From: Alphaproteobacteria bacterium
Lineage (GTDB): Bacteria; Pseudomonadota; Alphaproteobacteria; UBA7887
Direction of reading: 5' to 3'
Length of the DNA: 64,000 bases
Assembly (NCBI GenBank): GCA_965216755.1
Contig: CBDCGL010000011.1
Span: 4,256,001-4,320,000, forward strand
Position 1 is the first letter of the stretch. Each line of letters starts with the position of its first letter. The position numbers and the translations under genes are program-made. This document shows, piece after piece, positions 24,141-52,829 of this stretch. The notes under the pieces are model-generated. The model worked only from the letters and a program-made list of their open reading frames with translations, ran no database searches and had not been told where the DNA came from.

Positions 24141-24940
24141 AAACGATTGCGTCCTTATTGCTGCAGGGTCGGTGCTTGTCCGCTGTTTTGGCTACGCCCC
24201 GATATGCGATGGCCGGAACATGTTGAAGCTATATACGAGCGCAAGAATCGGCGATCAACGTTCGGATGGCTGGCCGAGGCAACGATCCTGCACGAGCCAA
24301 TGATTCGGCGTCCTTCAGTTCGAGCAAATACAATAATAACCGTTTAAAGATCTCAGATTAGCTTGCTCCGGACAGGCGAGAGGGGCCCGCAAGGTGCCTG
24401 CCGGCGTATCCATGTACCGTGGGGGTTCGGCTGTGCCAACGTCTCCGACTTGTCGCCGTGTTTGCGCATTTGATCTCGGGCCGATATGGCCGGCCGCGGC
24501 CTGCGCCGCCCCTCGGGTCGCATTCGGCGCCTTCGATGGCCTTCTAGCCTATTGCTTTTCAACGAGATTCTTGGCGGCGGGACACGGGCTGGCAGTTGAT
24601 CCGGAAATGTGCACACGGGTCGGCGGCATGACAAGGAAGCTACAGGTGTCATCAAAGTTCAGCCTCGGTTCACGGTCAGCTTGGAATGATTCGCATGCGG
24701 AACTAAAATCCGAGACGAATTCCCGATCACTACTGCCGATCAAAGTTTCCTGGGCTTTGTGGTCGTGGCAAAGGGATCGACCTAAATCGATCGTAAGGGG
24801 CAGACCCCCTGAGGATAATTCGGAGTGTCGTCGGCGCCGCAGAGGGTCGTGCGCCGTCGTCGCGCGTCGATCGGATGAGGGTCGGAGTCGCCGGCGTTGA
24901 CGGCGCGCAACGATGCTTGAAGGGCATGTGGGCGAGGACA

Positions 24941-25381
24941 ATGGGCGCAAAAAAGGATACCGGTACACACGAACGATTGCAGCGATCGGAAGTCGTTCAA
25001 GGTTCGTCGGATCGATCGTTTGGGATCGTCTTCGCGGTCGTATTTGGCATTATCGCCATTTGGCCGTTGCTCCACGAGGGTGGTCTGCGCTGGTGGTCTT
25101 TGATCATCGGGTTGGGTTTCCTGGCCGTGTCATTCGTGCGCCCAACGTTGCTTGCGCCACTCAACTACATTTGGACCAAATTCGGCTTGCTGCTTCACCG
25201 CATCGTCAACCCGCTGATTATGGGTATTCTGTTCTTTATCGTCGTGACCCCGATCGGACTTGTGATGCGACTCGGCGGCAAAGATCTGCTGCGACTCCGA
25301 TTTGAGCCAAATCAACAGTCCTATTGGATTGAGCGTGAACCACCCGGACCAGCGCCGGACTCTATGAAACATCAGTTCTGA
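24941..25381 (+). CDS. SxtJ-family membrane protein
   Basis: SDRSFGIVF, PLNYIWTKFGLLLHRIVNP, VTPIG, SYWIER, C-terminal MKHQF; adjacent to a carbamoyltransferase. Confidence 0.85.
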   Translation: MGAKKDTGTHERLQRSEVVQGSSDRSFGIVFAVVFGIIAIWPLLHEGGLRWWSLIIGLGFLAVSFVRPTLLAPLNYIWTKFGLLLHRIVNPLIMGILFFIVVTPIGLVMRLGGKDLLRLRFEPNQQSYWIEREPPGPAPDSMKHQF

Positions 25382-25388
25382 GGCTGAA

Positions 25389-25538
25389 ATGGACTTCTTG
25401 AAAGAGCTTTGGCAGTTCATGCGTGTGCGCAAGAAGTTTTGGCTGATGCCAATTCTTTTGATGATGCTGCTTCTTGGCGGATTGGTGGTGCTGACTCAAG
25501 GCAGTGCCGTGGCGCCGTTCATCTACACAATCTTTTAG
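25389..25538 (+). CDS. 49-aa single-TM peptide, SxtK/DUF5989 family
   Basis: Below the ORF-track cutoff. Manual translation: MDFLKELWQFMRVRKKFWLMPILLMMLLLGGLVVLTQGSAVAPFIYTIF*. Fits the gap between the sxtJ-like and carbamoyltransferase genes. Confidence 0.92.
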   Translation: MDFLKELWQFMRVRKKFWLMPILLMMLLLGGLVVLTQGSAVAPFIYTIF

Positions 25539-25552
25539 TTTAGGCGGCTCCG

Positions 25553-27388
25553 ATGCGCATTTTGGGTCTTTCGGCCTTCTATCACGACAGTGCCGCGGCG
25601 CTGGTGGATGAAACTGGGATTGTCGCGGCGGCGCAGGAAGAGCGCTTTACCCGGGTCAAGCACGACTCGGGCTTTCCCAGCCATGCCATCGAATATTGTT
25701 TGAAAGAAGCGGGTATCGGCCTGGGCGATGTCGACTTCGTGGCATTCTACGATAAGCCGTTTTTGAAGTTCGAACGACTGCTTGAGACGTACCTGGCATT
25801 CGCGCCACGGGGCTTCAAATCGTTCCGCATGGCGATCCCGGTTTGGCTCAAGGAGAAGCTGTTTCAGAAGAAGCTGCTCAAGGACGAACTCAAGCAATAC
25901 GCGCCCGACTATGACTGGGAGAAGCGCCTGGTGTTCGCCGAGCATCACCAGAGCCATGCTGCCAGCGCGTTTTATGCCTCACCGTTTGAGTCTGCTGTCG
26001 TGTTGACAATGGATGGTGTTGGCGAATGGGCGACGACGTCGGTTGGCATGGGCTATGGCGGCGGTTTGGAGATGGCGAAGGAGATCCATTTCCCCCATTC
26101 CATCGGGCTACTCTATTCGGCGTTCACCTACTACACCGGCTTCAAGGTGAACTCGGGCGAGTACAAAGTCATGGGATTGGCTCCCTATGGCGAACCGAAA
26201 TACAAGCAGCTGATTCTGGATAATCTGGTTGACCTGAAAAAAGACGGCACATTCCGCCTGGACCTGGACTATTTCGACTACTGCACCGGCCTTCGCATGA
26301 CCAACGACAAGTTCGACGCGCTGTTTGGCGCGCCGGCGCGACAACCGGAACAGCGGCTGACCCAGCGCGAGATGGACCTGGCGGCGTCGATCCAAGCGGT
26401 GACCGAAGAGATCGTCCTGCGATTGACACGGTCTTTGGCGGACGAGACCGGCTCGAGGAACCTGTGTTTGGCCGGCGGTGTGGCACTGAACTGTGTTGCC
26501 AATGGCAAGGTGCTGCGTGACGGTAGGTTTGAGCATATGTGGATTCAACCGGCGGCCGGCGACGCGGGCGGCGCGTTGGGGGCGGCCTTGGCCGCGTATC
26601 ACCTGTACCAAGGAAAGCCACGGCACATCAACGGCGCCATGGACGCGATGAGCGGCAGTTATCTGGGGCCGGCCTTTGCCCAAGACGATATCGAGGGACG
26701 CTTAACCGCGGTCGGTGCCAAATTCGAAACGCTCAGCGACGATGATCTGGTCAATGCAGTGGCCGATGCTTTGGTCGACGAAAAGGCGGTCGGTTGGTTC
26801 CAAGGCCGCATGGAGTTTGGGCCGCGCGCCTTGGGTGGTCGTTCCATACTGGGCGATCCGCGTTCGCCGACAATGCAGAAAACGCTCAACCTGAAGGTCA
26901 AGTATCGCGAGAGCTTTCGACCCTTTGCGCCATCGGTGTTGGCCGGCGACGTGTCGTCTTGGTTCGAACTGGACAGTGAAAGCCCGTACATGCTGCAGGT
27001 CGCCGATGTTGCCAAGGAGCGGCGGCGCGAGATGACCAATGAGGAACATGCCTTGTTCGGGATCGAAAAGCTAAACGTTGCCCGGTCAGAAATTCCGGCC
27101 GTGACCCACGTCGACTATTCGGCCCGAATTCAGACTGTCCACGAAGAAACCAATCCGCGTTACCACGCCTTACTCGAGGCATTCAAGGCGCGCACCGGTT
27201 GCCCGATCTTGGTCAATACGTCGTTTAATGTTCGCGGCGAGCCGATCGTCTGCACGCCCGAAGATGCTTTCCGTTGCTTCATGGGCACGGAGATCGAACG
27301 TCTCGCGGTCGGCAATTGTCTGCTGAAAAAGGAAGATCAGGATCCTTCGTTGAAGCTCGACTATAAGGATGCGTTTGAGCTTGACTGA
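25553..27388 (+). CDS. O-carbamoyltransferase (NodU/CmcH/TobZ/SxtI family)
   Basis: ILGLSAFYHDSAAA, EERFTRVKHD, HHQSHAASAF, DGVGE, EYKVMGLAPYG, GRMEFGPRALG, RESFRPFAP, NTSFNVRGEPIV. Confidence 0.95.
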   Translation: MRILGLSAFYHDSAAALVDETGIVAAAQEERFTRVKHDSGFPSHAIEYCLKEAGIGLGDVDFVAFYDKPFLKFERLLETYLAFAPRGFKSFRMAIPVWLKEKLFQKKLLKDELKQYAPDYDWEKRLVFAEHHQSHAASAFYASPFESAVVLTMDGVGEWATTSVGMGYGGGLEMAKEIHFPHSIGLLYSAFTYYTGFKVNSGEYKVMGLAPYGEPKYKQLILDNLVDLKKDGTFRLDLDYFDYCTGLRMTNDKFDALFGAPARQPEQRLTQREMDLAASIQAVTEEIVLRLTRSLADETGSRNLCLAGGVALNCVANGKVLRDGRFEHMWIQPAAGDAGGALGAALAAYHLYQGKPRHINGAMDAMSGSYLGPAFAQDDIEGRLTAVGAKFETLSDDDLVNAVADALVDEKAVGWFQGRMEFGPRALGGRSILGDPRSPTMQKTLNLKVKYRESFRPFAPSVLAGDVSSWFELDSESPYMLQVADVAKERRREMTNEEHALFGIEKLNVARSEIPAVTHVDYSARIQTVHEETNPRYHALLEAFKARTGCPILVNTSFNVRGEPIVCTPEDAFRCFMGTEIERLAVGNCLLKKEDQDPSLKLDYKDAFELD

Positions 27389-27758: not shown

Positions 27759-30700
27759 ATGACCGCGAATGTCTTCGACTGTGTGATTCTCGGTGATGAA
27801 TCACTGCTCATCGGGTGCGGTGATATCTTGCGTGAACGCGGCCATCGGATCCGCGCGATTATGTCGGCCAATCCGCAAATCGCCACCTGGGCAAAAAGCA
27901 ACGATATAACGTGCGTGTCGGATTTAGAGAGCTTGCGCGCTTCGATGGCCGAGGGCGCGATCGACTATTTGTTCAGCATCACCTATTTGTCGATTGTTCC
28001 GACGGATCTCTTGGCGGCGGCGCGGCATGGCGCGATCAATTTTCACGATGGGCGCTTGCCGGACTATGCGGGCCTCAATACACCGGTTTGGGCGCTGCTC
28101 AATGACGAGCGAGATTACGGCATCACCTGGCACTTGATGGCCGAAAAAGTCGACCAAGGCGATATTTTGATGCGTGTCCCGGTGGCGATCCAGGACCACG
28201 ATACGGCCCTGAGTCTCAACACCAAATGTTACGAAGCGGCGCTGCAATCATTTCCCGTTCTTCTGGATGCGCTGGAGAGCGAGAACGTTGCGCGCAGCCC
28301 GCAGAATCCGAGCGCGATTCGCTACTTCGGCAAATACAAAAAGCCGGATGCGGCCTGCGCCATACGCTGGGATCAAGATGCGGCTGCGATCACACGTTTG
28401 GTGCGCGCCCTGGAATTTGGCGCGTATCGCAATCCGGTGGGCGCGGCCAAACTGTTGCTTGGCGACACGGCAGTTATCGTCCACGAGGCCGACAACGTGG
28501 GGACAGCGGCACAACACGCGGCCGGCGAGGTTGTTGGGATCAGCGAAGAGACAATCACCGTGGCTGCCGGACAGGGCGCCGTTGCGCTGCGCCGTCTCAG
28601 CCAATTGTCAGGGGCCAGTTGCACGATATCCGACATTGTCGCACATCATGACCTCAAGGTCGGTGATCGACTGACAGTGATTGACGACGCCAGCGCCCAA
28701 AGCCTGGGCGCGCGGCAGAGCGATGTCGCCAAGCACGAGGACTACTGGGTCCGACGTTTGGCGAACCTGGATGGGGTCAGATTGCCCGGACATGGGGGGG
28801 GCGCATCCGCACCGACTCAGCCAAGCATGCACGCCGAGCCGTTTGTCGTGCCCTCTGATGCCCAATCCTTGCTGGGCGGCGACCCGCTCGCGTTTATGGT
28901 CGCCTTGGGTGCGTTCGTGGCACGAATGGATGGCAAGACAAGCTTCGACGTTGCATACCGCGATGGCGCCCTGCGGGCATTGGTCCCGGTCGATGATCCG
29001 ATTTTTTCACGCTTCGTGCCACTGCGGTTTGAGATTGATTTGGCAACGCCGTTCGCCGACCAACGTGCGCAGCTGTCTGCGGCCATCCAAGAACTGACCA
29101 AACGCAAGACATTTCTGATTGATGCGAAGGCGCGGCACCCGGCGGTGGCGCAGGCGACGGCTAACGGCGCGCCGGTTTTGCCGGTCCGAATTAACGTCGG
29201 TGGCATAACCGAGCCAGCCAACGCGGGCGGCCTAACGATCGCAATTGATGACGCCGCGACAGAATGTATCTGGCACTACGATTCCGCTGCCGTCAGTGCG
29301 TCCGCCGTGCACGCGGCCCAAACGCGCTTCGCCGCTTTCTTGGAAAATCTGTCGCGCATGTCGACCGCGTCGCTCGCTGATGTGCCGATGTTGAGCGCGG
29401 ACGAACAGCAGACCATGCTGCGCGACTGGAACGACACCGTGCGCGATTATCCGCGCGACCGTTGCGTCCATCAGCTGTTTGCGCAACGCGCGGCGCAAAC
29501 GCCCGACGCGGTTGCCTTGGTGTTCGAAAATCAATCGCTCACCTATGGCGCGCTCAACGCACGGGCCAACCGAGTCGCGCACCAATTGCGTGATATGGGC
29601 ATTGGGCCCGACAAACTGGTCGGCGTCGCGGTGGAGCGCTCGATCGATTTGATGGTTGCTGTTTTGGGTGTCTTGAAGGCGGGCGGCGCCTATGTGCCGA
29701 TCGATCCGTCGTATCCGCACGAACGCGTTCGGCTCATGCTCGAGGATTCGAATGTGCCGGTCCTGCTCACGCAACGACATTTGATGGTGGATCTGCCGGA
29801 TCATGCGGGCCGGGTTTTGTGCGTTGACGCGGACGGCGTGCAAGCTGACGCGGCCGGCGACCATGATCCGGACGTTGCCGTTCAACCCGACAATCTCGCC
29901 TACGTCATTTACACGTCTGGTTCCACGGGACGACCCAAAGGGGTCATGGTCGAACATCGCAACGTGGTCAATTTCTTTGCCGGCATGGACGACTGCATTG
30001 CACACGATCCGCCTGGCGTGTGGTTGGCGGTGACCAGCCTATCGTTCGATATTTCGGTGTTGGAGCTGTTTTGGACCCTGGCGCGCGGCTTCAAGATTGT
30101 CCTCCACGGCGATACGCCGCAGCGTAAAGTGGCCGCGGCGACAAGCGGCGCGGCACGAAAGCGACCGGTGAACTTCAGCTTGTTTTATTTTGCCAGCGAT
30201 CAGCAGGGCCAGGGTTCAGAGCGGTATCGATTGCTAATGGATGGCGCCAAGTTTGCCGATGAGCATGGCTTTGAAGCGGTCTGGACCCCGGAGCGCCATT
30301 TCCACGATTTCGGCGGCTTGTATCCGAATCCGTCGGTGGCCGGTGCAGCCATCGCCGCGATCACCAAGAACGTTGGCATTCGGTCAGGCAGTTGTGTTTT
30401 GCCCTTGCACCATCCGATTCGTGTCGCCGAAGAATGGAGCCTGGTCGACAATCTGTCCGACGGCCGCGTCGGAATCGGCATTGCATCTGGTTGGCAACCT
30501 AATGATTTTGTCTTGCGTCCGCAAAATCATGCCAAGGCCAAGGACATCATGTTCCATTCCTTGGAACAAGTGCAGAGGCTGTGGGCCGGCGAAAGCGTCA
30601 CGTTTCCGGGGCCGAAAGGTGATGTCGATGTCGCGATAATGCCAAAGCCGGTCCAAGATTCGTTGCCGGTTTGGATCACCACCGCCGGAAATCCCGAGAC

Positions 30701-32450
30701 CTATCGGCAGGCCGCACAGGCCAAGAGTTTCGTTTTGACGCATCTTCTTGGCCAAAGTCTCGATCAGGTCGCGGAAAAGATCGAGATCTATCGGCAAGCG
30801 TGGCGAGAAGCGGGGCACGAAGGCGAAGGCCACGTCACTTTGATGCTGCACACGTTCGTCGGCGACGATCCCAGCTTCGTCAAGGATATCGTCCGCGAAC
30901 CGATGAAACGCTATCTGTCGACCGCGATGAGCCTGGTCAAGGCCGCCGCGTGGAACTTTCCGACTTTGCAGAAGAAGTTCGTCGAGAAGTCCGGCGACGA
31001 GCTAGACGCCTATTTTGCCAACGCCTCCGAATCCGATCTGGATGCGCTGCTGGAGTTCGCGTTCGACCGCTATTACGAGCAGAGCGGCCTGTTCGGAACG
31101 CCGGAGCATTGTATCGAAATCGCCGAACGTGTTCGCGCGATCGGCGTCGACGAGGTTGCGTGTTTGATCGATTTCGGTGTGCCGACCGATATCGTTCTTG
31201 AACATCTCCCGCACCTTAACAAGGTTCGGCAGGCGATCGTGGCAGCCAATGATGATGGCGACACAGACGATCATTCGATCGCCGCCTTGATTGCGCGTCA
31301 CGGTGTCACGCACCTGCAATGCACGCCCTCGATGGCGAGTATGCTGTTGGCGGACACGGCGACCCGCGACGGGCTTCGCTCCGTCAAGCAGATGTTTGTC
31401 GGTGGCGAGGCCTTCCCGACACCGTTGGCCGAGGATTTGCGCGCGGCCGTCGGTGGCGACGTGACCAACATGTATGGCCCCACCGAAACAACGATTTGGT
31501 CATCGGTGCACAAGGTCGATGACACGTCCGCGGCAATCCCCATTGGGCGTCCGATTGCCAACACGCAGCTCTATGTATTGGATGAGTCCCAGCACCCGGT
31601 ACCAGTAGACGTGGTTGGTGAACTATATATCGGCGGCGACGGCGTCGTGCGCGGCTATAAGGACCGGCCGGACTTGACCGCCGAGCGCTTTGTCGACATC
31701 AGTGTCGTGCCGGGTGAGACGCCCCGTCGCTTGTATCGCACCGGTGATTTGGTGCGCTATCGCGAAGACGGCGTCATTGATTTCCTCGGTCGGGCGGATC
31801 ACCAGGTCAAGGTTCGCGGCTATCGAATCGAGTTGGGCGAAATCGAGTCGGTGCTGGGTCGTCATCCCGCAGTGCGATCGGCGGTCGTCGTCGCCCGAGA
31901 CGATGATGCCGGCGGACGTGGTTTGGTAGGTTATTATGTCCCGGACACGGGTTGGTCGCCAACCGTGCAAGAACTGCGCGATTTCACCGCGGCGCGATTG
32001 CCGGAATTCATGGTGCCGTCGTTGTTTGTTGAACTTGATGCGTTTCCGCTGACTCCCAACGGCAAGGTTGATCGGAAAGCCCTGCCAGATCCGATGGATA
32101 GCCGGCCACGGCCAGCATCGGTCGCCGACTATGAACCGCCCGTGGGCGAAATGGAAAGCGATATCGCGGAAATTCTGTGCGAGGTACTTGGCGTCGAGAA
32201 GATGGGACGGCAGGACAGCTTCTTCGACCTTGGCGGTCATTCACTGTCTGCGGTTCGAGTCGCGTTCCAGATGCGCCAGCAATTCGGGGTCGATTTTCCG
32301 CTTCAAACACTCTTCGAAGCGCCCACTGTTGCGGCACTGGCGGAGCGTGTTGAAACCATGGTACTTGAGCAAGCCGATAGCGATGAGCTTGAGAGTCTCT
32401 TGGCAGAAATGGAAGATACCTCAGACGCCATCGCGGTCGGCAACGACTAA
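27759..32450 (+). CDS. NRPS starter: formyltransferase - degenerate C - adenylation domain interrupted by a luciferase-like monooxygenase - PCP
   Basis: F: INFHDGRLPDYAG, VDQGD. A: YTSGSTGRPKG, SFDIS, NMYGPTE, YRTGD, NGKVDR. LLM insert about 30168-31230 (FSLFYFA, WTPERHF, SGWQPNDF). PCP: FFDLGGHSL. Confidence 0.92.
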   Translation: MTANVFDCVILGDESLLIGCGDILRERGHRIRAIMSANPQIATWAKSNDITCVSDLESLRASMAEGAIDYLFSITYLSIVPTDLLAAARHGAINFHDGRLPDYAGLNTPVWALLNDERDYGITWHLMAEKVDQGDILMRVPVAIQDHDTALSLNTKCYEAALQSFPVLLDALESENVARSPQNPSAIRYFGKYKKPDAACAIRWDQDAAAITRLVRALEFGAYRNPVGAAKLLLGDTAVIVHEADNVGTAAQHAAGEVVGISEETITVAAGQGAVALRRLSQLSGASCTISDIVAHHDLKVGDRLTVIDDASAQSLGARQSDVAKHEDYWVRRLANLDGVRLPGHGGGASAPTQPSMHAEPFVVPSDAQSLLGGDPLAFMVALGAFVARMDGKTSFDVAYRDGALRALVPVDDPIFSRFVPLRFEIDLATPFADQRAQLSAAIQELTKRKTFLIDAKARHPAVAQATANGAPVLPVRINVGGITEPANAGGLTIAIDDAATECIWHYDSAAVSASAVHAAQTRFAAFLENLSRMSTASLADVPMLSADEQQTMLRDWNDTVRDYPRDRCVHQLFAQRAAQTPDAVALVFENQSLTYGALNARANRVAHQLRDMGIGPDKLVGVAVERSIDLMVAVLGVLKAGGAYVPIDPSYPHERVRLMLEDSNVPVLLTQRHLMVDLPDHAGRVLCVDADGVQADAAGDHDPDVAVQPDNLAYVIYTSGSTGRPKGVMVEHRNVVNFFAGMDDCIAHDPPGVWLAVTSLSFDISVLELFWTLARGFKIVLHGDTPQRKVAAATSGAARKRPVNFSLFYFASDQQGQGSERYRLLMDGAKFADEHGFEAVWTPERHFHDFGGLYPNPSVAGAAIAAITKNVGIRSGSCVLPLHHPIRVAEEWSLVDNLSDGRVGIGIASGWQPNDFVLRPQNHAKAKDIMFHSLEQVQRLWAGESVTFPGPKGDVDVAIMPKPVQDSLPVWITTAGNPETYRQAAQAKSFVLTHLLGQSLDQVAEKIEIYRQAWREAGHEGEGHVTLMLHTFVGDDPSFVKDIVREPMKRYLSTAMSLVKAAAWNFPTLQKKFVEKSGDELDAYFANASESDLDALLEFAFDRYYEQSGLFGTPEHCIEIAERVRAIGVDEVACLIDFGVPTDIVLEHLPHLNKVRQAIVAANDDGDTDDHSIAALIARHGVTHLQCTPSMASMLLADTATRDGLRSVKQMFVGGEAFPTPLAEDLRAAVGGDVTNMYGPTETTIWSSVHKVDDTSAAIPIGRPIANTQLYVLDESQHPVPVDVVGELYIGGDGVVRGYKDRPDLTAERFVDISVVPGETPRRLYRTGDLVRYREDGVIDFLGRADHQVKVRGYRIELGEIESVLGRHPAVRSAVVVARDDDAGGRGLVGYYVPDTGWSPTVQELRDFTAARLPEFMVPSLFVELDAFPLTPNGKVDRKALPDPMDSRPRPASVADYEPPVGEMESDIAEILCEVLGVEKMGRQDSFFDLGGHSLSAVRVAFQMRQQFGVDFPLQTLFEAPTVAALAERVETMVLEQADSDELESLLAEMEDTSDAIAVGND

Positions 32451-32465
32451 ACGCACAAACGACAG

Positions 32466-35400
32466 GTGAGGTTGCGGAGCGTGCGGGAAAATAGAGACCG
32501 GCTATCGCGTTTGTCGCGTGAAGAGCGGGCGCGCTTGGTTATGCGCCTCAAAAAACGATCGGCCGCGGATGAGCCTGATCATATCCAACCGGATCCCGAG
32601 AACCGCTACGCGCCGTTCCCGCTGACCGATTTGCAGCAAGCTTATTGGATTGGGCGTAGTGGCTCTTTCCAGATGGGCCAAGTCGCCAGTCACAGCTATT
32701 TGGAGGTTGAGGGCGAATACGATCTGCCGGCCTTGGAGGCGGCGCTGCAAAAGGTGATCGCCCGGCATGAGAGCTTGCGCACGATTGTTCAACCGAACGG
32801 TCAGCAGCGGGTTCTGGAAGAAACGCCGCTTTATAAAATCGAAACCACCGATGTTGGCGCTCTGACGCCGGACGCGGCGCAGGCCGCGATGGACGCGTTG
32901 CGCCGTCGTATGTCGCATCAGGTCCGGCCCAGCGACCAATGGCCGGTTTTCGAGATCCATGCCGCACTACTGGGCGGCCGGCGCGCACGTCTCTATGTCA
33001 GCCTCGACGCGCTTCTGATTGATGGCTGGAGTATCGCCGTGTTGTTCCGCGAGTGGGCGCAGGCGTACCGAGAGCCGGATAAGGCATTGCCGGACATCGA
33101 TCTGACGTTTCGCGACTATGTTCTGGCGGAACGTGCTTTGGAAGAGACGGCGAAGTTTGAACGTGACCAAGCTTATTGGTTGGCGCGCATCGACGATTTG
33201 CCCAATGGGCCGGATTTGCCACTGGCCAAGCCGCCGTCCGAATTGGCCGAGGCACGGTTTGTTCGACGTCACGCCCGCCTTGAGGCGGAACAATGGACCC
33301 AATTGCGAGCGCGGGCGAAGGCACATGGTCTGACGCCGACAGGGATTCTGCTGGCGGCTTATGCCGACGTGGTGGCGTTGTGGTCGCAGAACGAGCGGTT
33401 TTTGATCAACGTGCCGCAGTTTAATCGCGCCCCCTTGCACCCACATGTAAACGACGTCATCGGTGAGGCCGCGTCGTTCAGCGTTGTCGCCGTGGATATG
33501 ACCGGCAATGACGGATTTAGTGACCGCGCACAACGATTGCAGCGGCAAATGTGGGAAGACCTTGACCACAGCGGATTCAGCGGCGTCAAAGTCCTGCGCG
33601 AGGTCGCGCGGTCACGGGGCCAGACCTCGGGGTCATTGGCGCCGGTGATTTTTACCGCGGCGCCACAAGACGATGACGGCAAAGACGGCTACGCGACTTT
33701 GGTTGCACGCGAAATCGGTGAGGTGGTGTTTTCCGTCAACCAGACCTCTCAAGTTTGGATCGATAACCATATCTCCGAGCAAGATGGTGGCCTGATTTGC
33801 GATTGGGATTCGGTCGACGAGCTGTTCCCACCGAATCTGTCCGCGGACATGCTTGGCGTCTATTTCGATCTGCTGAACCGCTTGGCGCGCGACGACGCGG
33901 TGTGGGAGATGGATTGGCCAAGCATCGCTGCGACCTTGATGCCGGCTGATCAACGCGAGCGCCGCGACAGTGTGAATGACACCGCCCAGCCGGTGCCCGA
34001 TCACTTGATGCAGGACCTGTTCGCCGCCCAAGTCAGTGCACATGCGGATAAGCCAGTGGTGATCGCTCGCGACCGCACCTTGCGCTACGGCGAGCTTGAT
34101 CAATTGGCCAACCGGTGGGCGCGACGCTTGCGTGATATGGGTGTTGCACCGGGCGATCGCGTGGCGATTGTCATGGAAAAAGGCTGGGAGCAGTTTGTCG
34201 CGGCTTTCGCTGCGCTCAAAGCCGGTGGCGCGTATGTGCCGATCGATTCCGAGCAACCTGTCGAGCGACTGACCTATATGATCGAGAACTGTGGCGCGGC
34301 CTGCATTCTCAGTCAATCGTGGGTTGACGCACGACTGACTTGGCCGGACGGGGCCCGGATCCTGTTAGTCGACAAAGAGTCGGTCGATGATTGGGACGCA
34401 ACGGCCATAGATCCGGAACGGACGGCTGACGATCCCGCCTTTGTGATTTACACCTCGGGTTCGACCGGGATGCCGAAGGGCGTGGTGTTGAGCCATCGGG
34501 GCGTCGTTAACGCGTTACTGGCGACCAATCAGCGGTTCGATGTTGGGCCGGACGATGTTGGCTTCGCTATCGCGGCATTGCATCACGATCTTTCCATCTA
34601 TGACACGTTTGGATTGCCGGCGGCGGGGGGCACGGTCGTCATGCCTGACCCGACGGGACGGCGTGATCCGGCTCATTGGTCCGAGTTGATGGTGGCGCAC
34701 AACGTCACGGTGTGGAATTCGGTGCCGGCCATGATGGTGATGCTATTGGAATATGCCGATAGCCACGAGAACGCCATGCCGACCGAACTCAGGTTGTCGT
34801 TCTTGGGCGGCGATTGGGTACCCGTTGACGTGCCGCAGCGTATTGCGCGGCACGCCAAGAAATGTCTGTTGGTCACGACCGGCGGTCCGACCGAAACCAC
34901 CCTATGGAACATCTGGAATCCGATTGAGGCATTCGATCCCGATTGGACCAGCATTCCGTATGGCAAACCGATCGCCAATACACGCTATTACATCATGAAC
35001 GAGCATTTCGTTGAGCGGCCGGATTGGGTGGTCGGCGAAATGTATGTGGCTGGTGTTGGCGTCGCGCACGGCTATCTCGGCGATCCGAAACGCAGCGGCG
35101 AGAAATTCGTACTAAATGGGTGGACCGGTGAACGCTTGTGCCGCACTGGCGATTTGGGGCGCTACATGCCGGATGGCAATATTCAGTTCGTCGGGCGCGC
35201 GGACTTCCAAGTCAAGATCAACGGCCAAAGGATCGAGTTGGGAGAGATCGAGGCCGCGCTGGCCAAACATCCCGATATTTCAACAGCCGTGGTCATGGCG
35301 ATCGGACCGGCACAAAAGGCACGCCGCTTGGCCGGCTTTGTGGTTCCGCAAGAGGGTAAGACGGTTGTCAGCGACGACCTGCGGAACTACCTGATGGATA

Positions 35401-36686
35401 AGGTGCCGGACTATATGGTGCCGACCGCATTTGTTAGCCTTGACAGATTACCCTTGACCGCCAATGGCAAGGTCGACCGAAAAGCACTCAGCGCGCTGGA
35501 GACCGAGGTCGCAAAACCTGAGGCGGCGCGGTCCACGGGCGGCGCCTCGACCACGGCCAAAGTTGCCGCCTTGGTGGGGACCGTGATGGGCGACGACGCC
35601 ATCGATCCGGCGGCCAACCTTCTGTCGCTGGGCGCGAATTCCATCAATATGGTGCAGATCGGCAACGAAATCGAAAAGGCATTCGGATTTCGGCCGCGCA
35701 TGGACCAGATTTTTCGCTTGCAATCGATCAACGCCATCGCCGCGTTTTGCGATCGCGAGCTGGGCGGGGCCGACAGTGAAGAGACCAAGGATACCGGCGA
35801 AATCGGTCTGACCAACGAAATTCGAGAAATCATTGCATCCTTCGAGAACATCATCGATCCGTGCGAGCGCGACGCGTTCAAGAACTCGCAACCGGGCATT
35901 CGCCGCGATGACGCCGACCGGGATTTCGTCCAGCTCGTTGCGCCCGAGATAACCGACGAACTCCGCGCCTACTACGCCAATCATCGCAGCAATCGTCGAT
36001 TTGGGCTGCAGCCTATCCCGCTCGAGCAGTTTAGTTCGTTCTTGGCGTGCATGTATCCGATCGAGCTCAATGGCCGGCCGAAATATTTGTTTGCTTCGCC
36101 GGGCGGGCTCTACCCGACCCAGGCCTATGTCCATGTTAAGCCGGCGCGGATCGAGGGTATCCCCGGCGGCAGCTACTACTATCATCCGTCGAAGCATCGA
36201 CTCGTTTCACTCAAAAAGGGCGCGGTGGTCGATCGCGGCATTCATGTCCCGTTTGTCAACACACCGGTGTATGACGAGGCCGCGTTTTCGATTTTCTTGG
36301 TCGTCGATCTGTCGGCAATTGCGCCGTCCTATGGCGAACGATCGATCTTCTTCGCGACCTTGGAGGCGGGCATCATGTCGGTTGTGTTGGAAGAAGCTGC
36401 CCGCGATGCCAAGTTGGGCATTTGCCAAATGGGCGGTGTCGACTTTGATCAGATCCGCGATTTGTTCGATCTACAACCGCATCACCTCTATATGCACTCG
36501 CTGCTCGGCGGACCGCTGTTCGATGGGCCCGATAGCCAACCGGTGATTCGCACGTCGCGAGATGAGGAAAACCGCACGCGGATTGCCAATCTCTTGGAAC
36601 GTATTCGCCAGCTATCGCCGGATGAAGCGCGGGTCATGGTCGGCGTACTCAAGAATGAGGTCGATCGGGGCTCGGAGAATGACTGA
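32466..36686 (+). CDS. NRPS module: heterocyclisation (Cy) - A - PCP - oxidase (SagB/nitroreductase-like)
   Basis: Cy: FPLTDLQQAYWIGR, DALLIDGWS (DxxxxDxxS), PVIFT, NQTSQVWID. A: YTSGSTGMPKG, WNSVPA. PCP: LGANS. Ox: RSNRRF, ASPGGLYP, YYYHP, LEAG. Confidence 0.92.
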   Translation: MRLRSVRENRDRLSRLSREERARLVMRLKKRSAADEPDHIQPDPENRYAPFPLTDLQQAYWIGRSGSFQMGQVASHSYLEVEGEYDLPALEAALQKVIARHESLRTIVQPNGQQRVLEETPLYKIETTDVGALTPDAAQAAMDALRRRMSHQVRPSDQWPVFEIHAALLGGRRARLYVSLDALLIDGWSIAVLFREWAQAYREPDKALPDIDLTFRDYVLAERALEETAKFERDQAYWLARIDDLPNGPDLPLAKPPSELAEARFVRRHARLEAEQWTQLRARAKAHGLTPTGILLAAYADVVALWSQNERFLINVPQFNRAPLHPHVNDVIGEAASFSVVAVDMTGNDGFSDRAQRLQRQMWEDLDHSGFSGVKVLREVARSRGQTSGSLAPVIFTAAPQDDDGKDGYATLVAREIGEVVFSVNQTSQVWIDNHISEQDGGLICDWDSVDELFPPNLSADMLGVYFDLLNRLARDDAVWEMDWPSIAATLMPADQRERRDSVNDTAQPVPDHLMQDLFAAQVSAHADKPVVIARDRTLRYGELDQLANRWARRLRDMGVAPGDRVAIVMEKGWEQFVAAFAALKAGGAYVPIDSEQPVERLTYMIENCGAACILSQSWVDARLTWPDGARILLVDKESVDDWDATAIDPERTADDPAFVIYTSGSTGMPKGVVLSHRGVVNALLATNQRFDVGPDDVGFAIAALHHDLSIYDTFGLPAAGGTVVMPDPTGRRDPAHWSELMVAHNVTVWNSVPAMMVMLLEYADSHENAMPTELRLSFLGGDWVPVDVPQRIARHAKKCLLVTTGGPTETTLWNIWNPIEAFDPDWTSIPYGKPIANTRYYIMNEHFVERPDWVVGEMYVAGVGVAHGYLGDPKRSGEKFVLNGWTGERLCRTGDLGRYMPDGNIQFVGRADFQVKINGQRIELGEIEAALAKHPDISTAVVMAIGPAQKARRLAGFVVPQEGKTVVSDDLRNYLMDKVPDYMVPTAFVSLDRLPLTANGKVDRKALSALETEVAKPEAARSTGGASTTAKVAALVGTVMGDDAIDPAANLLSLGANSINMVQIGNEIEKAFGFRPRMDQIFRLQSINAIAAFCDRELGGADSEETKDTGEIGLTNEIREIIASFENIIDPCERDAFKNSQPGIRRDDADRDFVQLVAPEITDELRAYYANHRSNRRFGLQPIPLEQFSSFLACMYPIELNGRPKYLFASPGGLYPTQAYVHVKPARIEGIPGGSYYYHPSKHRLVSLKKGAVVDRGIHVPFVNTPVYDEAAFSIFLVVDLSAIAPSYGERSIFFATLEAGIMSVVLEEAARDAKLGICQMGGVDFDQIRDLFDLQPHHLYMHSLLGGPLFDGPDSQPVIRTSRDEENRTRIANLLERIRQLSPDEARVMVGVLKNEVDRGSEND

Positions 36687-39600: not shown

Positions 39601-40026
39601 CGGCTGCCGCTAACGGCGAACAACAAAGTCGATCGTTTAGCTTTGCCGAATCCGTTCGAGGATGTCGCCGCCGTCGAAGACGATTATGTGCCGCCGCGGA
39701 CTCCGGCCGAAAAGCTGGTGGCGGGCATATGGCAGGATGTGTTGGGTGGTACGCGTGTTGGCGCGAATGATAATTTCTTCGAGGTCGGTGGTCACTCGTT
39801 GCTCGCTATGCAGGTCATTGCACGGATTCGGCAAGAAACCGGGCAGAAACTCTCTCCACGTGCTATGATATTGAATTCGCTGGAAAGAATCGCGGCCGAT
39901 CTCGGTCCGATCGGTGTTGTGACAAGTTCTGTCGCCGGCCCGTCCGAAGCCGAGACGGTGAACGATGATTCGGCGAATAGCTCTTTGCTAAAGCGCGTCA
40001 AAAGTTCGCTCTTTGGGCCGCAGTGA
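36679..40026 (+). CDS. NRPS terminal module C - A (Gly-like) - PCP, no thioesterase
   Basis: C: HHGIADG. A: FTSGSTGRPKG, SFDISVLE, MQATP, NMYGPTETTIWS. PCP: FFEVGGHSL, then only a short tail. ATG 36679 overlaps the previous stop. Confidence 0.92.
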   Translation: MTDLYQGTDGLSPEQSELFALMLDYEGLDPQELPIAARGDDAPNAPLSHTQERFWFLNQMAPDSPAYNEPIAMRLQGALDRDALTQALTALLRRHSALRVRFVTDGASLAQTIEPVPDNPLTIEDLRDVAADNRLAQAQARAAAVTVAPMDFSVGPLYRFRLFQLDDQDHLLLIVLHHGIADGFSLRLLMRELSALYAAFCAGQPSPLPDVPLHYTDYAAWERAAAGETRRRDSLSYWRRVLSDAPDLLALPTDHPRQSAFTFHGATERFAVDNERSTALRDLSAEQGVTLFMTMLAAFQALLHRYARQDMILVGTPVSSRERPELETVVGSFANNLVLHADCADNPRFVDLLAQVSDTSLEAFSHQAVPFEKVVEAVDPKRDAGYNPLFQVAFLLHQNTLRDNLELSHLRVSAVPIETGATRFDIDLMLEDTRAGLVGTLHYNTDLFEPATIARLIGHYQTLLQAVVDDPQQRLSDIALLEADERGLQLETWNNTAQDYDRTATLHGLIARQADRTPEAVAVVDDATSLTYGELEARANALAAHLCRHGAEPGKIVGVMLERRTDLLVGLLGVLKSGAAYLPLDPGFPKRRLSMMLEDSAAPLIVSEPSLAADVPDSAATVVDLCDIATSGAAPPDSATAGADDLAYVIFTSGSTGRPKGVQISHRNVVNFLTSMAKAPGLNADDRLLAVTTTSFDISVLELFLPLTVGATVVLADRDTTADGDALAEFVMESGATVMQATPATWQLLIAAGWNGDMGLKALCGGEALTRDLARSLKSRVGCLWNMYGPTETTIWSTCAEITDSDDITVGRPIANTQIYVLDTHRQPAPIGVPGELFIGGDGVARGYLNRPDLTAERFVPDPFRAGDACMYNTGDLARLHDDGRIEHLGRVDSQVKVRGFRIELGEIESALSEHDGLAQAAVAVRHASPNDARLIAYTVNAVADQPPTVGDLRKHLRQRLPDYMIPQKFVELDRLPLTANNKVDRLALPNPFEDVAAVEDDYVPPRTPAEKLVAGIWQDVLGGTRVGANDNFFEVGGHSLLAMQVIARIRQETGQKLSPRAMILNSLERIAADLGPIGVVTSSVAGPSEAETVNDDSANSSLLKRVKSSLFGPQ

Positions 40027-40085: not shown

Positions 40086-40883
40086 ATGATGCCGCAATAT
40101 TTTGGTGCTGAGAACGAACGGCTTTTTGGCGTTTATCAAGAGCCCACGCATGGCACAGACCATGACCATGGCGTGGTGCTGTGTTATCCCCTATGGCAGG
40201 AATATGTGCGGTCCCATCGCGCCTATCAGCGCTTGGCGGTTATGCTCGCGCGCCAGGGACACCACGTTTTCCGATTCGACTATTTTGGCTCCGGTGATTC
40301 GTCCGGATCCAGCGACGGCCTCACGATAGCCGCGTGCCTCGATAACATCGCCACGGCGATCGACGAGCTCAAGGACGTCGCGGGCGTCAGCCGCGTGTCA
40401 TTGGTCGGGCTACGGTTTGGCGCCACGCTGGCGGCGCTTGTCGGCGGCCACCGCGTTCCCTGCCACAGACTGGTGCTTTGGGATCCGGTGGTGGTCGGCG
40501 CGGATTATATGAATGGACTGCATGGCTTGCGCGACAAGGTGATGACGGCGTGCAGCTGGCGGCGCCGGCGGCCAAACGGTCTTGCCAGTATTGGGGCGCA
40601 TCAGCTCTTGGGATTCCCGGTCCCCGAGCCCGTCGCCGCCAATGTTTCGGCCGCCGATCTATTGTCGGTTGAAAAATTCCCGGCGCGCCGCGCCCTTGTG
40701 GTCGGTTCATCGGACAAGCCCAGCTACAAAACGCTGGTCGATCACATGGAGCGCCGTGGTACCAAGACGTCCTATCAAGTGGTCGAGGATGACGACGATT
40801 GGGACGAATTTTCCAAATACGATTTTATCCTCGTACCGCCAAACGCCCTGTCGGCGATCACGGCGTACCTTGCCGCGGGATAA
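40086..40883 (+). CDS. Alpha/beta-hydrolase-fold protein lacking the nucleophile (resembles exosortase-A-associated hydrolase 2)
   Basis: FRFDYFGSGDS; nucleophile elbow reads GLRFG; LVLWDPVV. Confidence 0.75.
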   Translation: MMPQYFGAENERLFGVYQEPTHGTDHDHGVVLCYPLWQEYVRSHRAYQRLAVMLARQGHHVFRFDYFGSGDSSGSSDGLTIAACLDNIATAIDELKDVAGVSRVSLVGLRFGATLAALVGGHRVPCHRLVLWDPVVVGADYMNGLHGLRDKVMTACSWRRRRPNGLASIGAHQLLGFPVPEPVAANVSAADLLSVEKFPARRALVVGSSDKPSYKTLVDHMERRGTKTSYQVVEDDDDWDEFSKYDFILVPPNALSAITAYLAAG

Positions 40884-40887
40884 AGCA

Positions 40888-41760
40888 ATGGAACGTGCGT
40901 TTGCCTTTGGCCCGCGATCGGCCTTGATCGGTACACTGACCGAGGCTGTTGACACGCCACTATCCGACCACCAGCCGGGTGTCATCCTGATCAATGCCGG
41001 GTTGGTTCATCGCATCGGTCCCGGCCGCCTGTACGTGGAAATCGCCCGTCGCCTGGCCGCACGGGGATTCCCGGCGTTCCGTTTCGACCAATCGGGCATC
41101 GGCGACAGCATGGCCCGGCGCGACGATGTCGCGTTTGAAAAACGTGCGCAGGAAGAAATCGTCGCGGCGATGGATTTGATGGTGGCGCAGGGTCAATGCC
41201 AGACTTTCGTGCTGATGGGGATTTGCTCTGGCGCCGACAATGCCCATCAGGTTGCGCTATCGGATCCGCGGGTTGTTGGCGCGGTTTATTTGGATGGTCC
41301 AGCTTATCGAACCGTGAAGTTCCTGGTGCGCCACTACGGCGTCCGGCTATTTCGACCACGCAGCTGGGCCGGACTTGTCGCGCGTCTGTTGGCCCGGATA
41401 TCGCGAACCGCCGGTGAACAACAGGAACCGACATATGTGCGCGAACTGCCGCCGCGTGAGCAATTCGGTCGTGAGTTATACAATTTGGCCGAACGCGGCA
41501 TGTCGCTGCTGCTGATCTTCACCGGTGGTTATCAACGTTACTACAATTATGAGCACCAGTTCGCCGATGTATTCGCACCATTGGCTGCGAACGCCGGTTT
41601 GCAGAACATCTTTCTGTCGCACTGCGACCATACGTTCGGGTTGGTCGAAGACCGTGCCGCCGTTATCGATATTATCGCGGATTGGATGTTGAACGCGTTC
41701 GGCGCGACCAATGACCGCCCGGTCGCTGAGACACTGCGCCAAGCGTCCGGTCAGGTCTGA
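40888..41760 (+). CDS. Alpha/beta-hydrolase-fold protein with Cys at the elbow (resembles exosortase-A-associated hydrolase 1)
   Basis: NAGLVHRIGPGR, FRFDQSGIGDS, GICSG, C-terminal DHTF. ATG 40888 lies 4 nt after the previous stop. Confidence 0.78.
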   Translation: MERAFAFGPRSALIGTLTEAVDTPLSDHQPGVILINAGLVHRIGPGRLYVEIARRLAARGFPAFRFDQSGIGDSMARRDDVAFEKRAQEEIVAAMDLMVAQGQCQTFVLMGICSGADNAHQVALSDPRVVGAVYLDGPAYRTVKFLVRHYGVRLFRPRSWAGLVARLLARISRTAGEQQEPTYVRELPPREQFGRELYNLAERGMSLLLIFTGGYQRYYNYEHQFADVFAPLAANAGLQNIFLSHCDHTFGLVEDRAAVIDIIADWMLNAFGATNDRPVAETLRQASGQV

Positions 41761-41790: not shown

Positions 41791-42549
41791 TTATGCGTGC
41801 GTGAAAGCGCTGGTAAGAATATGACTTGACGTGCAATGAAAGCGCCCAGAAATGCCTTGTCTTGGGCCAACCTGGCTGCCTTCGAAAACGATTTTGGCGC
41901 GAAAGGTTCCGCGCTCAGGGTCGATCGACAAGCGTACGTCCAAAAAGTCGAAGGGGATCCGGTGGGCCGGATATAGGCACTTGTACACGCTTTCTTTGGC
42001 GCTGAAAATTACCTTTGACCATCCGCTCGCCCGTGGTGCCGGCGTGACCCGCGCAAAGGCCATTTCGTCATTCGTGCAAATCATGTCGTTGAGATCGCAC
42101 CCCAACTCGCCGGCGCACTCAACATCAATGCCGATGCCATGAAAGACCTGCGCGCGCGCGACCGCCGCGACGCACAGATCCGTGCAGTGCGACAGACTGC
42201 CGACAATGCCGTGTGGCCATATCGGCACGCGGTCGGCATCACGCGGCAGTGGCGCCTGTTCATGTCCAAAGTAACCGAGCGCACGTCGCGCGCAGACCCG
42301 ACCAGCCGAATATTCGCGCCGTCGCTGCGACGTCGCCCGCACGAGCTCGTTTTCGCAGTCCAAACCAGCGCGATTGCCAACGCGATCGTCAATTTCGGCC
42401 ACGCCGTCAAGGTCGAGCATGGCCACGCTGACGCCGCCTGGAAACAACCGTGCTAGGCGCGAATCGGGCCGTGGCGCGCCAACTTGGTGGGCCAGTCCGA
42501 TGCCGGTCGCCGGCGACTGTTCGACGCTATCTAGTCCGGGCGAGAACAT
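41791..42549 (-). CDS. 4'-phosphopantetheinyl transferase (EntD/Sfp type)
   Basis: RRREYSAGRVCARRAL, PIWPHGIVGSLSHC, GIGIDVE, IFSAKESVYK. Confidence 0.92.
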   Translation of the reverse strand: MFSPGLDSVEQSPATGIGLAHQVGAPRPDSRLARLFPGGVSVAMLDLDGVAEIDDRVGNRAGLDCENELVRATSQRRREYSAGRVCARRALGYFGHEQAPLPRDADRVPIWPHGIVGSLSHCTDLCVAAVARAQVFHGIGIDVECAGELGCDLNDMICTNDEMAFARVTPAPRASGWSKVIFSAKESVYKCLYPAHRIPFDFLDVRLSIDPERGTFRAKIVFEGSQVGPRQGISGRFHCTSSHILTSAFTHA

Positions 42550-52061: not shown

Positions 52062-52079
52062 ACCGGGGCATTAGAGACC

Positions 52080-52826: not shown

Positions 52827-52829
52827 ACG

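Follow-up and report, generated by a model that had tools for sequence, protein, structure and literature searches.

A nonribosomal starter module combining a formyltransferase domain with a luciferase-like monooxygenase embedded in a glycine-type adenylation domain, found inside an alphaproteobacterial polysaccharide locus

With what unit does a nonribosomal assembly line begin when its first module carries both a formyltransferase (F) domain and, inside its adenylation (A) domain, a luciferase-like monooxygenase (LLM)? The question is raised by NRPS1 (P0001), encoded at 27759..32450 on the forward strand of the window, the 64,000-nucleotide stretch of alphaproteobacterial DNA analysed here. 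Formyl starters and monooxygenase-interrupted glycine domains are each known separately, and our literature search returned no study joining both in a starter: no paper was found on an F-A(LLM)-PCP starter, none among the papers listed combined a formylation domain with hydroxyglycine, the accessible text of PMC11225332 and PMC10212144 offered nothing pertinent, nor was any assay found of an enzyme of the family to which NRPS1 belongs. The initial annotation had read the protein as a module that formylates glycine and then oxidizes it. Those parts of this reading that can be checked in the sequence all hold, while formylation followed by alpha-hydroxylation is predicted from homology.

The NRPS1 reading frame is intact (1,563 aa, zero internal stops) and encodes an initiation module composed of a formyltransferase, half a condensation (C) domain, a Gly-type A domain split by an LLM, and a peptidyl carrier protein (PCP), in the order F, C*, A(N), LLM, A(C), PCP. 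The F domain (residues 1 to ~296; 27759..28646) was delimited with Pfam, invariant columns and an alignment to LgrA, and is followed by C*, the C-terminal lobe of a C domain (residues ~300-560; 28656..29438), recognized with homologue profiles. Next come the N-terminal part of the A domain with motifs A1 to A4 (29445..30134; Pfam and motifs), the FMN-type LLM (residues 806-1157; 30174..31229; TIGR04020 and PDB 6KET), the C-terminal part of the A domain with HLQCTPS, NMYGPTETTIWS and PNGKVDR, which includes Lys1436 (31236..32087; Pfam, NCBIfam and motifs), and finally the PCP with GGHSL and Ser1495 (32160..32351; Pfam and motifs), followed by an acidic C-terminal tail. The mapping of domains with HMMs that the initial annotation had suggested was done with Pfam and NCBIfam, and gives the F domain, the split A domain, the LLM and the PCP.

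The fusion of F to A is indirect, as ~260 residues of a C-terminal C-domain lobe lie between them. The C* segment alone has zero Pfam matches even at E up to 10, and its identity was therefore taken from homologues and profiles: homologous segments match the Pfam Condensation profile at positions ~187-456 of 456 (P0019 at 59 bits), and a profile built from 12 C*-type segments matches, in a PDB profile search, the C-terminal halves of solved C domains, the matches starting at about residue 187-280 of the latter. The E-values exclude chance, and by profile comparison the segment at ~300-560 is a real C-domain remnant. Its identity was clearer from the PDB profile search than from hhalign, in which the C* profile and the NRPS3 C domain sequence aligned with 86.8% probability over the last 97 columns only. 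A motif search found HHxxxD[GA] absent anywhere in P0001. The N lobe that bears HHxxxDG is missing in NRPS1 and the F domain occupies its place; what had been noticed initially between F and A as a C-like segment without this motif is precisely a condensation domain's C-terminal lobe.

Downstream of NRPS1 two further synthetases are encoded on the same strand. NRPS2 (P0002; 32466..36686) opens with a basic N-terminal head and comprises a Cy domain (DALLID at 181), a Cys-like A domain, a PCP and a nitroreductase-type Ox domain. NRPS3 (P0003; 36562..40026, its true start probably being the ATG at 36679) comprises a C domain (HHGIADG), a Gly-type A domain (DILQLGMIWK) and a PCP, with no thioesterase (TE). 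The two alpha/beta-fold genes 3' of NRPS3, also on the forward strand, are paralogues of each other: the first (40086..40883) encodes a distant TIGR03101 relative (NCBIfam) with a nucleophile elbow, GLRFG, without Ser or Cys, and the second, alpha/beta hydrolase 2 (40888..41760), encodes a distant TIGR03100 relative with a Cys in its elbow (GICSG) and is a candidate off-loading enzyme. They are followed on the reverse strand by a Sfp-type 4'-phosphopantetheinyl transferase (PPTase; 41791..42549).

From the observed domain identities and order, the integrity and conservation of the motifs and the gene context, we infer a substrate, a formylation, a hydroxylation, an order for these steps and a fate for the product, which together make up a three-protein line that we hold, as a whole, at a probability of roughly 55%. 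The NRPS1 A domain would activate glycine and load its own PCP; the F domain would formylate the amine of the loaded glycine with N10-formyl-tetrahydrofolate as donor, in the manner of LgrA and of the formyl-glycine loaders PtxE, OzmO and CongA; and the embedded FMN-dependent LLM, with reduced flavin and O2, would hydroxylate glycine next to the thioester, at its alpha carbon. The predicted carrier product is most likely N-formyl-alpha-hydroxyglycyl-S-PCP. C*, being without a catalytic lobe, would most likely have been kept for a structural role, bracing the N-terminal domain against the A core. The chain would then be transferred from NRPS1 to NRPS2 via the acidic tail and the basic head, NRPS2 would add cysteine, cyclise it and oxidise it to a thiazole, and NRPS3 would add glycine. 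Because a TE domain is absent, the Cys-nucleophile alpha/beta hydrolase and its non-catalytic paralogue are proposed to off-load the chain, either by hydrolysis or, perhaps, onto some constituent of the polysaccharide pathway encoded around them.

An N-acyl carbinolamide beside a thioester could be unstable, and the proposed intermediate may not survive. It is conceivable, although unlikely, that the module instead provides a masked glyoxylyl or aldehyde starter, in which the formyl group does no more than protect the amine while the LLM hydroxylates the alpha carbon; the carbinolamide would then break down, either ahead of thiazole formation or following it, with loss of formamide, and the glyoxylyl unit left behind would end up as a thiazole-2-carbaldehyde. 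We know of no precedent for a Cy domain taking a glyoxylyl donor, and a formyl group spent merely for disposal would be costly, both of which speak against this scheme. MtaG/MelG carry a flavin monooxygenase between a4 and a5 and are proposed to hydroxylate the alpha carbon of glycine (PMC11411415, PMC10204066); the accessible portions of these sources propose, as the last step, cleavage of just such a carbinolamide into an amide and a glyoxylyl thioester. The NRPS1 oxygenase sits at this a4/a5 site, which bears out the parallel with an A-embedded monooxygenase drawn in the initial annotation, and not at the a8/a9 site of module 4 of SolF, the oxygenase-bearing Gly module for solanimycin in Dickeya solani (PMC10204066). 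On the other hand, solanimycin B retains alpha-hydroxyglycine, which the available text of the same paper matches to the FMO-containing Gly module by MS and labelling, and which speaks against a masked glyoxylyl starter. Retention of the N-formyl-alpha-hydroxyglycyl unit is the reading that we prefer.

That reading requires both tailoring domains to act. Pfam places Formyl_trans_N at residues 59-165 (E 2.4e-16) and Formyl_trans_C at residues 199-295 (E 1.7e-9) of NRPS1, and residues 52-167 align to residues 33-141 of the F domain in the LgrA structure (i-E 2.3e-8); both proteins share N-x-H and VDxGDIL. Asn94, His96 and Asp132, which we take to be the catalytic residues of the F domain, are invariant in 23/23 aligned homologues and also align to LgrA, and the assignment of an F domain to this starter module stands. 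The LLM matches TIGR04020 (MupA/Atu3671 LLM; NCBIfam) end to end (residues 806-1157 against profile positions 1-341 of 341) at 496.2 bits, about twice the cut-off of 244.45, as well as Pfam Bac_luciferase at residues 811-1131 (E 9.6e-51). Its closest solved relative is the Ox domain of PuwE (PDB 6KET, E 2.2e-108; query residues 3-359 against chain residues 3-348), to which the accessible part of PMC4219810 assigns, as a proposal, 2-hydroxylation of a carrier-bound acyl chain, alpha to the thioester. The NRPS operon showed no gene for a flavin reductase. That one of the two domains is idle, so that the module would deliver either N-formyl-glycine lacking the hydroxyl, the LLM being silent or skipped, or a hydroxylated unit lacking the formyl group, F being vestigial, seems to us quite improbable. 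Solanimycin A is described as arising when the FMO step is skipped (PMC10204066, available text), and the Formyl_trans_N match spans only profile positions 71-177 of 181. Against this stand the end-to-end LLM match and, at only 47-50% overall identity, the invariance of many LLM residues alongside the F triad in all 23 homologues.

The remaining step concerns the substrate. Motif A4 (FDISVLE) is found at residue 763, HLQCTPS at 1185-1191 and A5 (NMYGPTE) at 1237, and Pfam AMP-binding matches in two stretches (E 7.7e-94), the first at residues 574-792 (profile positions 1-245 of 384), followed by AMP-binding_C at 1361-1436 and PP-binding at 1468-1531. D764 and Q1187 span 423 residues in NRPS1 and, in GrsA numbering, 43, which corresponds to ~380 inserted residues. 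The A domain had been described as split between A4 and the HLQCTP/A5 region by about 350 aa of LLM, and the 352-aa TIGR04020 match and the motif positions agree with this. Motifs A4, A5 and A10 are present, Lys1436 and PCP Ser1495 are invariant among the aligned homologues, and the F-C*-A(LLM)-PCP family keeps the pocket motifs SFDISVLE, HLQCTPS and NMYGPTETT(I/V)W almost unchanged; we predict an A domain that is Gly-type, split but complete. The pocket code read by eye from the motifs, using the position mapping of Stachelhaus et al., is DILQFGMIWK, identical to the hand-read code of the initial annotation, which had called it close to the Gly code; the mapping agrees with the 1AMU coordinates, in which query residue 1208 pairs with chain residue 294. 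The code is the same as that of the uninterrupted NRPS3 A domain at 9/10 positions, and position 299 is Phe in NRPS1, Met in the family consensus and Leu in NRPS3 and in reference Gly codes. This position might hint at a substrate other than glycine, for instance a different small amino acid, a hydroxy acid or a 2-oxo acid, with different tailoring chemistry, a reading made improbable by the nine shared positions, the concurrence of two independent readings and the fact that the previously described A-embedded LLM/FMO modules are, in the portions of the literature available, all Gly modules.

The NRPS operon lies inside a polysaccharide locus, the genes of which span ~6,000 to 44,100, and Pfam searches found no PKS in the window. 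Directly upstream of NRPS1 and on the same strand (24875..27388) are genes for an SxtJ-like membrane protein (24875-25381), a 49-aa ORF (25389-25538) and a NodU/CmcH-type carbamoyltransferase (25553-27388), whose membership in the NRPS pathway is uncertain. The ORF at 24394-24900 matched no family at E up to 1 and is probably not a gene. TIGR03100 and TIGR03101, the best models for the two alpha/beta-fold genes of the window, describe the XrtA (exosortase A) hydrolase 1/hydrolase 2 pairs, which like the pair of the window are found in a polysaccharide locus next to a carrier-protein system. However, the window's pair scores far below the cut-offs (81.1 bits where the cut-off is 168.45, and 67.8 where it is 202.75) and XrtA itself (TIGR03109) has no match in the genome from which the window comes, which is 99.8% complete; membership in an XrtA-type locus was rejected on these grounds.

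The initial annotation had mentioned similar F/LLM synthetases, without a known product, in other alphaproteobacteria. Such relatives were indeed found in Rhizobium, Agrobacterium, Aureimonas and many Rhodobacteraceae, and they spread far beyond the alphaproteobacteria. Among the other database matches listed, 90 of 119 carry the F domain plus the A-LLM-A-PCP core; the family proteins are ~1,530-1,610 aa long and share 47-50% identity with NRPS1 over their full length. When the contigs of species-representative genomes were scanned with alignment A1 as query, at least 661 stretches matched, of which at least 660 encode relatives, in many phyla, while a single-protein query against genome contigs gave 81 pattern matches and zero relatives. 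In the databases searched, few single-module NRPS architectures are as common as F-C*-A(LLM)-PCP. Of 39 well-flanked F-type loci, 36 encode a one-module PKS partner (KS-AT-KR-DH-ACP-TE), recognized by its KS, and the PKS-partnered loci usually sit among polysaccharide genes. The partners found in the window, namely Cy-A-PCP-Ox (thiazole), C-A-PCP (Gly) and the hydrolase pair, were seen in 0/50 F-type loci, and no orthologue occurred among the matches listed from 40 relatives.

One syntenic locus, L073, encodes A-PCP-C-A(LLM)-PCP, followed by Cy-A-PCP-Ox (51% identity) and C-A-PCP; the hydrolase pair recurs there too, as does a PPTase. Because of this gene order, we read L073 as sharing the core of the window's assembly line but capping it with an acyl instead of a formyl group, a comparison that supports a role of the F domain as N-cap. 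The first modules of the window and of L073 fall in one clade of 9 rows (SH-aLRT 96%).

The L073 cluster can serve as a natural control, an acyl cap replacing the formyl cap, and the window itself is a simpler handle on the chemistry of the module than the PKS-linked majority. Its predicted product is a tiny tripeptide-derived thiazole of ~259 Da if the formyl and hydroxyl groups are both kept, and should be easy to seek. The position in a polysaccharide locus, common to most relatives, raises the idea of surface-glycan decoration. In a more speculative version, which we consider a long shot, the formyl group would be a traceless protecting group, the masked glyoxylyl unit would end, once the thiazole has formed, as an electrophilic thiazole-2-carbaldehyde or as an O-carbamate made by the adjacent carbamoyltransferase, and the Cys-type hydrolase pair would move the peptide onto the exopolysaccharide that the surrounding locus makes. 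If true, the cell-surface polysaccharide would be capped with a reactive group of nonribosomal origin, which would hint at the role of hundreds of polysaccharide-linked relatives.

Among known systems, MtaG/MelG, which are Gly modules, as NRPS1 is predicted to be, carry an oxygenase at the same a4/a5 insertion point. As described in the available portions of the sources, they are terminal C-A-MOX-A-T-TE modules with a full C domain, in which hydroxylation serves amide cleavage, whereas NRPS1 is a starter in which an F domain precedes half a C domain, a TE is absent and two more modules follow. SolF module 4, a Gly module, likewise has an embedded flavin monooxygenase, and chain extension continues in SolF; according to the accessible text it is internal and acylated by a polyketide, unlike the formyl-type starter NRPS1 with its a4/a5 insertion. 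The formyl-glycine and formyl-valine loading modules of PtxE, OzmO, CongA and LgrA (module 1) share with NRPS1 the N-terminal F domain on a loading module, and the first three are predicted to make formyl-glycyl-S-PCP (PMC5764310, available text). These F-A-PCP loaders differ from NRPS1 in being without a C remnant and without an oxygenase in the A domain. Formyl-Gly oxazole pathways need an OzmP/CongE/PtxD cyclodehydratase, and a pathway of this type was rejected because Pfam gave no such enzyme in the window or in six annotated loci. The PuwE Ox domain (puwainaphycin) and the NRPS1 LLM are both in-line assembly-line oxygenases, although the former, as far as the accessible description goes, is placed at the junction of PKS and NRPS modules, outside any A domain, and acts on a 3-amino fatty acyl chain. 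Finally, the family takes in the widespread, long-noted orphan NRPS/PKS cluster of roseobacters, which also encodes a glycosyltransferase and a PPTase and whose product is given as uncharacterised in the available part of PMC4337385. Its NRPS has the F-C*-A(LLM)-PCP architecture (L026 and other Rhodobacteraceae loci), and it shares the adjoining PPTase and polysaccharide genes with the window, which carries Cy-A-PCP-Ox, C-A-PCP and the hydrolase pair in place of the roseobacter PKS.

NRPS1 (P0001), the initiation module of the operon, is encoded by an uninterrupted frame of 1,563 codons (27759-32450, + strand). Pfam places Formyl_trans_N at residues 59-165 (E 2.4e-16), Formyl_trans_C at 199-295, two AMP-binding stretches (E 7.7e-94), the first of which (574-792) ends at profile position 245 of 384, Bac_luciferase at 811-1131 (E 9.6e-51), AMP-binding_C at 1361-1436 and PP-binding at 1468-1531. 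The NCBIfam model TIGR04020, describing MupA/Atu3671 natural-product luciferase-like monooxygenases (LLM), is matched over all of its 341 positions by residues 806-1157, scoring 496 bits where the cut-off is 244. The adenylation (A) domain carries about 380 additional residues between A4 (FDISVLE, residue 763) and the pocket residue ahead of A5 (NMYGPTETTIWS, residue 1237), and is otherwise complete, with HLQCTPS at 1185-1191 and A10 (PNGKVDR) containing Lys1436; the PCP motif GGHSL supplies Ser1495. The initial annotation had placed the LLM inside the A domain, between A4 and the HLQCTP/A5 region, and had read the pocket code by hand as DILQFGMIWK: the motif positions and the size of the insertion bear out the former, and an independent reading anchored on motifs returns the same code. 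The reading uses what we take to be the Stachelhaus position-to-motif mapping, with which the coordinates of GrsA-PheA (1AMU) agree: residue 1208 of NRPS1 corresponds to chain residue 294, hence F1213 to 299 and G1215 to 301. Glycine is the likely substrate, because the code resembles that obtained by the identical procedure for the insertion-free A domain of NRPS3 (DILQLGMIWK) and the pocket-bearing motifs are invariant, or almost so, in 23 family members.

In the same alignment of 23 homologues (47-50% identity to P0001), Asn94, His96 and Asp132 of the formyltransferase (F) domain are invariant and align with the N-x-H and VDxGDIL motifs of the solved LgrA F domain. The LLM shows long invariant runs and can be aligned end to end with the Ox domain of PuwE (PDB 6KET, E 2.2e-108); the section of PMC4219810 on puwainaphycin credits PuwE with hydroxylating a carrier-bound acyl chain at position 2.

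Between F and A lies a half condensation domain (C*), already noted from the sequence as C-like and devoid of HHxxxDG. This description holds, as HHxxxD[GA] does not occur anywhere in P0001 and homologues match the Condensation model. Residues 291-574 of NRPS1, searched alone against Pfam at E up to 10, gave no match, and the equivalent segments of four relatives match the second half of the Condensation model only (cut-off 30.6 bits): P0019 with 59.3 bits over positions 187-456 of 456, P0014 with 39.0 bits (best stretch 395-456), P0016 with 32.7 bits (best stretch 409-456) and, under the cut-off, P0012 with 28.0 bits (192-453). A profile of 12 C* segments, run against the PDB at E up to 0.01, matches 21 distinct sequences in the C-terminal halves of their C domains, including TomBC (280-537), 7C1P (187-433), EntF (236-449) and McyB (201-335 and 394-464), and it also aligns with the end of the NRPS3 C domain (86.8% probability). 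On these sequence comparisons C* is the C-terminal lobe of a condensation domain, of which the catalytic N lobe has been lost and F has taken the place; the lobe may have been retained as the scaffold that normally packs on the A core.

All genes of the operon up to the hydrolases lie on the + strand. An SxtJ-like protein (24875-25381), a hydrophobic ORF of 49 aa (25389-25538) and a NodU/CmcH-type carbamoyltransferase (25553-27388) precede NRPS1, which is followed by NRPS2 (32466-36686; Cy with DALLID, Cys-like A, PCP and nitroreductase-type Ox), NRPS3 (36562-40026; C with HHGIADG, Gly-type A, PCP, no TE), two paralogous alpha/beta-fold proteins (40086-40883 and 40888-41760) and, on the - strand, an Sfp-type PPTase (41791-42549). 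A GTG-started ORF of 168 codons (24394-24900) lies in otherwise intergenic sequence and shares 26 bases with the beginning of the SxtJ-like ORF; it has no family match at E up to 1 and probably does not represent a gene. The acidic, Asp/Glu-rich tail of NRPS1 (32352-32450) and the Arg/Lys-rich basic head of NRPS2 (32466-32590) look like a docking pair. Acidic tails are also seen in P0019, P0033 and P0018, proteins of the same clade, and relatives with a PKS partner have a basic, Arg-rich tail; such tails may serve in docking and vary with the type of partner.

The best NCBIfam matches of the alpha/beta-fold proteins 1 and 2 are TIGR03101 and TIGR03100 (hydrolases 2 and 1, exosortase A system-associated), far under cut-off and thus distant kin, and no XrtA was found in the window's genome. 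The nucleophile elbow of the first protein reads GLRFG, with Arg and hence no nucleophile, and that of the second GICSG, with Cys, the second protein also having a C-terminal DH motif; the counterparts in L073, a locus of an uncultured gammaproteobacterial MAG (pair at L073:21007-22625), read GLRLG and GLCTG. The pair looks like a pseudo-enzyme with a Cys hydrolase or acyltransferase.

In two Rhizobacter MAG loci (L034 and L040; close kin that count as one observation), the LLM-bearing NRPS gene likewise has a carbamoyltransferase immediately upstream, and for this reason the one upstream of NRPS1 may be part of the pathway. In L040 (region L040:7674-13183), the annotated member of the pair, Pfam finds that this NRPS gene encodes C*-A(LLM)-PCP without F. 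The enzyme could carbamoylate the predicted new hydroxyl or, in the Rhizobacter loci, the amine, where carbamoyl would replace formyl. The main rival to retention of the hydroxyl is that the carbinolamide collapses to a glyoxylyl or aldehyde unit.

The operon lies within a polysaccharide locus (about 6,000 to 44,100) with a deacetylase, a Wzx-like flippase, a UDP-glucose dehydrogenase, a heparinase II/III-like protein, three GT4 glycosyltransferases, two AsnB-type amidotransferases, two GDSL proteins, a Wzy-like protein and a WcaJ-type priming transferase scoring above its cut-off. The assembly-line product could be released free or transferred onto the glycan. For the AsnB-type paralogues (8751-10694 and 18173-20065), the top model is the XrtA/PEP-CTERM amidotransferase, whose cut-off of 817 bits exceeds their scores of 535 and 543. 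The flanks carry ordinary genes: an Fe-S cluster operon of suf type (SufB, SufC, SufD, SufS and a NifU-like protein; 50601-55914), a penicillin-amidase family protein (1318-3672) and a gamma-glutamyltranspeptidase (60174-61733). At least two more NRPS-like genes lie elsewhere in the genome (G000:C11:3923155-3925101 and 2464592-2466343); one of these, an open frame of 1126 aa, has an uninterrupted A domain with 48-51% identity to the NRPS1 A halves.

Modules of this type are common yet unstudied; the wiring in the window is rare within our sample. Among 119 protein-database matches listed (query excluded), 90 have F with the A-LLM-A-PCP core, 28 have this core preceded by a full C domain, and one lacks the LLM. 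Species-representative genomes gave at least 661 pattern matches, 660 of the 661 encoding relatives. The 73 best-scoring loci, rich in Rhodobacteraceae so that fractions are not population estimates, comprise 50 formyl-type (F-bearing) loci, 11 with a full C domain, two without LLM match and ten cut too short for typing; they include Rhizobiaceae, Aurantimonadaceae, Comamonadaceae, myxobacteria, Acidobacteriota, Chloroflexota, Planctomycetota and cyanobacteria. Of the 39 formyl-type loci flanked by 7 kb or more on each side, 36 have KS as a neighbour, 35 PKS TE, 29 GT2, 27 PPTase, 18 a Wzx-like gene and 13 a priming transferase, with neither Cy nor Ox (0/39 each). All six Pfam-annotated loci have a neighbouring KS-AT-KR-DH-ACP-TE protein (about 2,150 aa), and four of them are surrounded by polysaccharide genes. 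KR precedes DH in this partner (L042:3132-9896, L058:3242-9706 and L026:4787-11179, among others), an order resembling iterative PUFA- or enediyne-type synthases, which is why the PKS partner may act iteratively. PMC4337385 reports that 28 of 57 Roseobacter genomes share a conserved NRPS/PKS cassette with an uncharacterised product, and the common F-C*-A(LLM)-PCP plus PKS arrangement is this cassette.

A Cy/Ox partner occurs in none of the 50 formyl-type loci, and L073 alone among the 73 has one. Its order is A-PCP-C-A(LLM)-PCP, Cy-A-PCP-Ox, C-A-PCP, the same hydrolase pair, one small ORF and PPTase, and its Cy-A-PCP-Ox protein shares 51% (Cy part) and 52% (Ox) identity with NRPS2. Window and L073 thus have a Gly(LLM)-thiazole-Gly core in common, whereas the predicted N-cap is formyl in the window and an acyl group in L073; we take this cap swap on a shared core as the best comparative support for F as the putative N-capping catalyst. 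In a quick-mode maximum-likelihood tree of the core (127 rows, midpoint-rooted for drawing only), P0001 falls in a nine-row clade (96% SH-aLRT) whose other members are the L073 module, four formyl-type proteins and three bimodular ones of formyl type, P0001 and L073 both being long branches; the F or C state requires at least five changes on this tree. The NRPS operon was probably acquired, because 40 relatives, 22 from its family and 18 from its class, show partial A-domain or LLM matches only among the matches listed, the top one with E 5e-59 over NRPS1 residues 1170-1544.

PMC5764310 describes F-A-PCP modules that load formyl-glycine in the phthoxazolin, oxazolomycin and conglobatin pathways. 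MtaG/MelG, according to the passages on them in PMC10204066 and PMC11411415, are Gly modules with a flavin oxygenase at a4/a5, the same site as in NRPS1, and their hydroxylation is proposed to end in amide release. Module 4 of SolF is, in the account of PMC10204066, likewise a Gly module, with its oxygenase at a8/a9 instead of the a4/a5 of NRPS1, and alpha-hydroxyglycine is kept in solanimycin B, as established there by MS and labelling.
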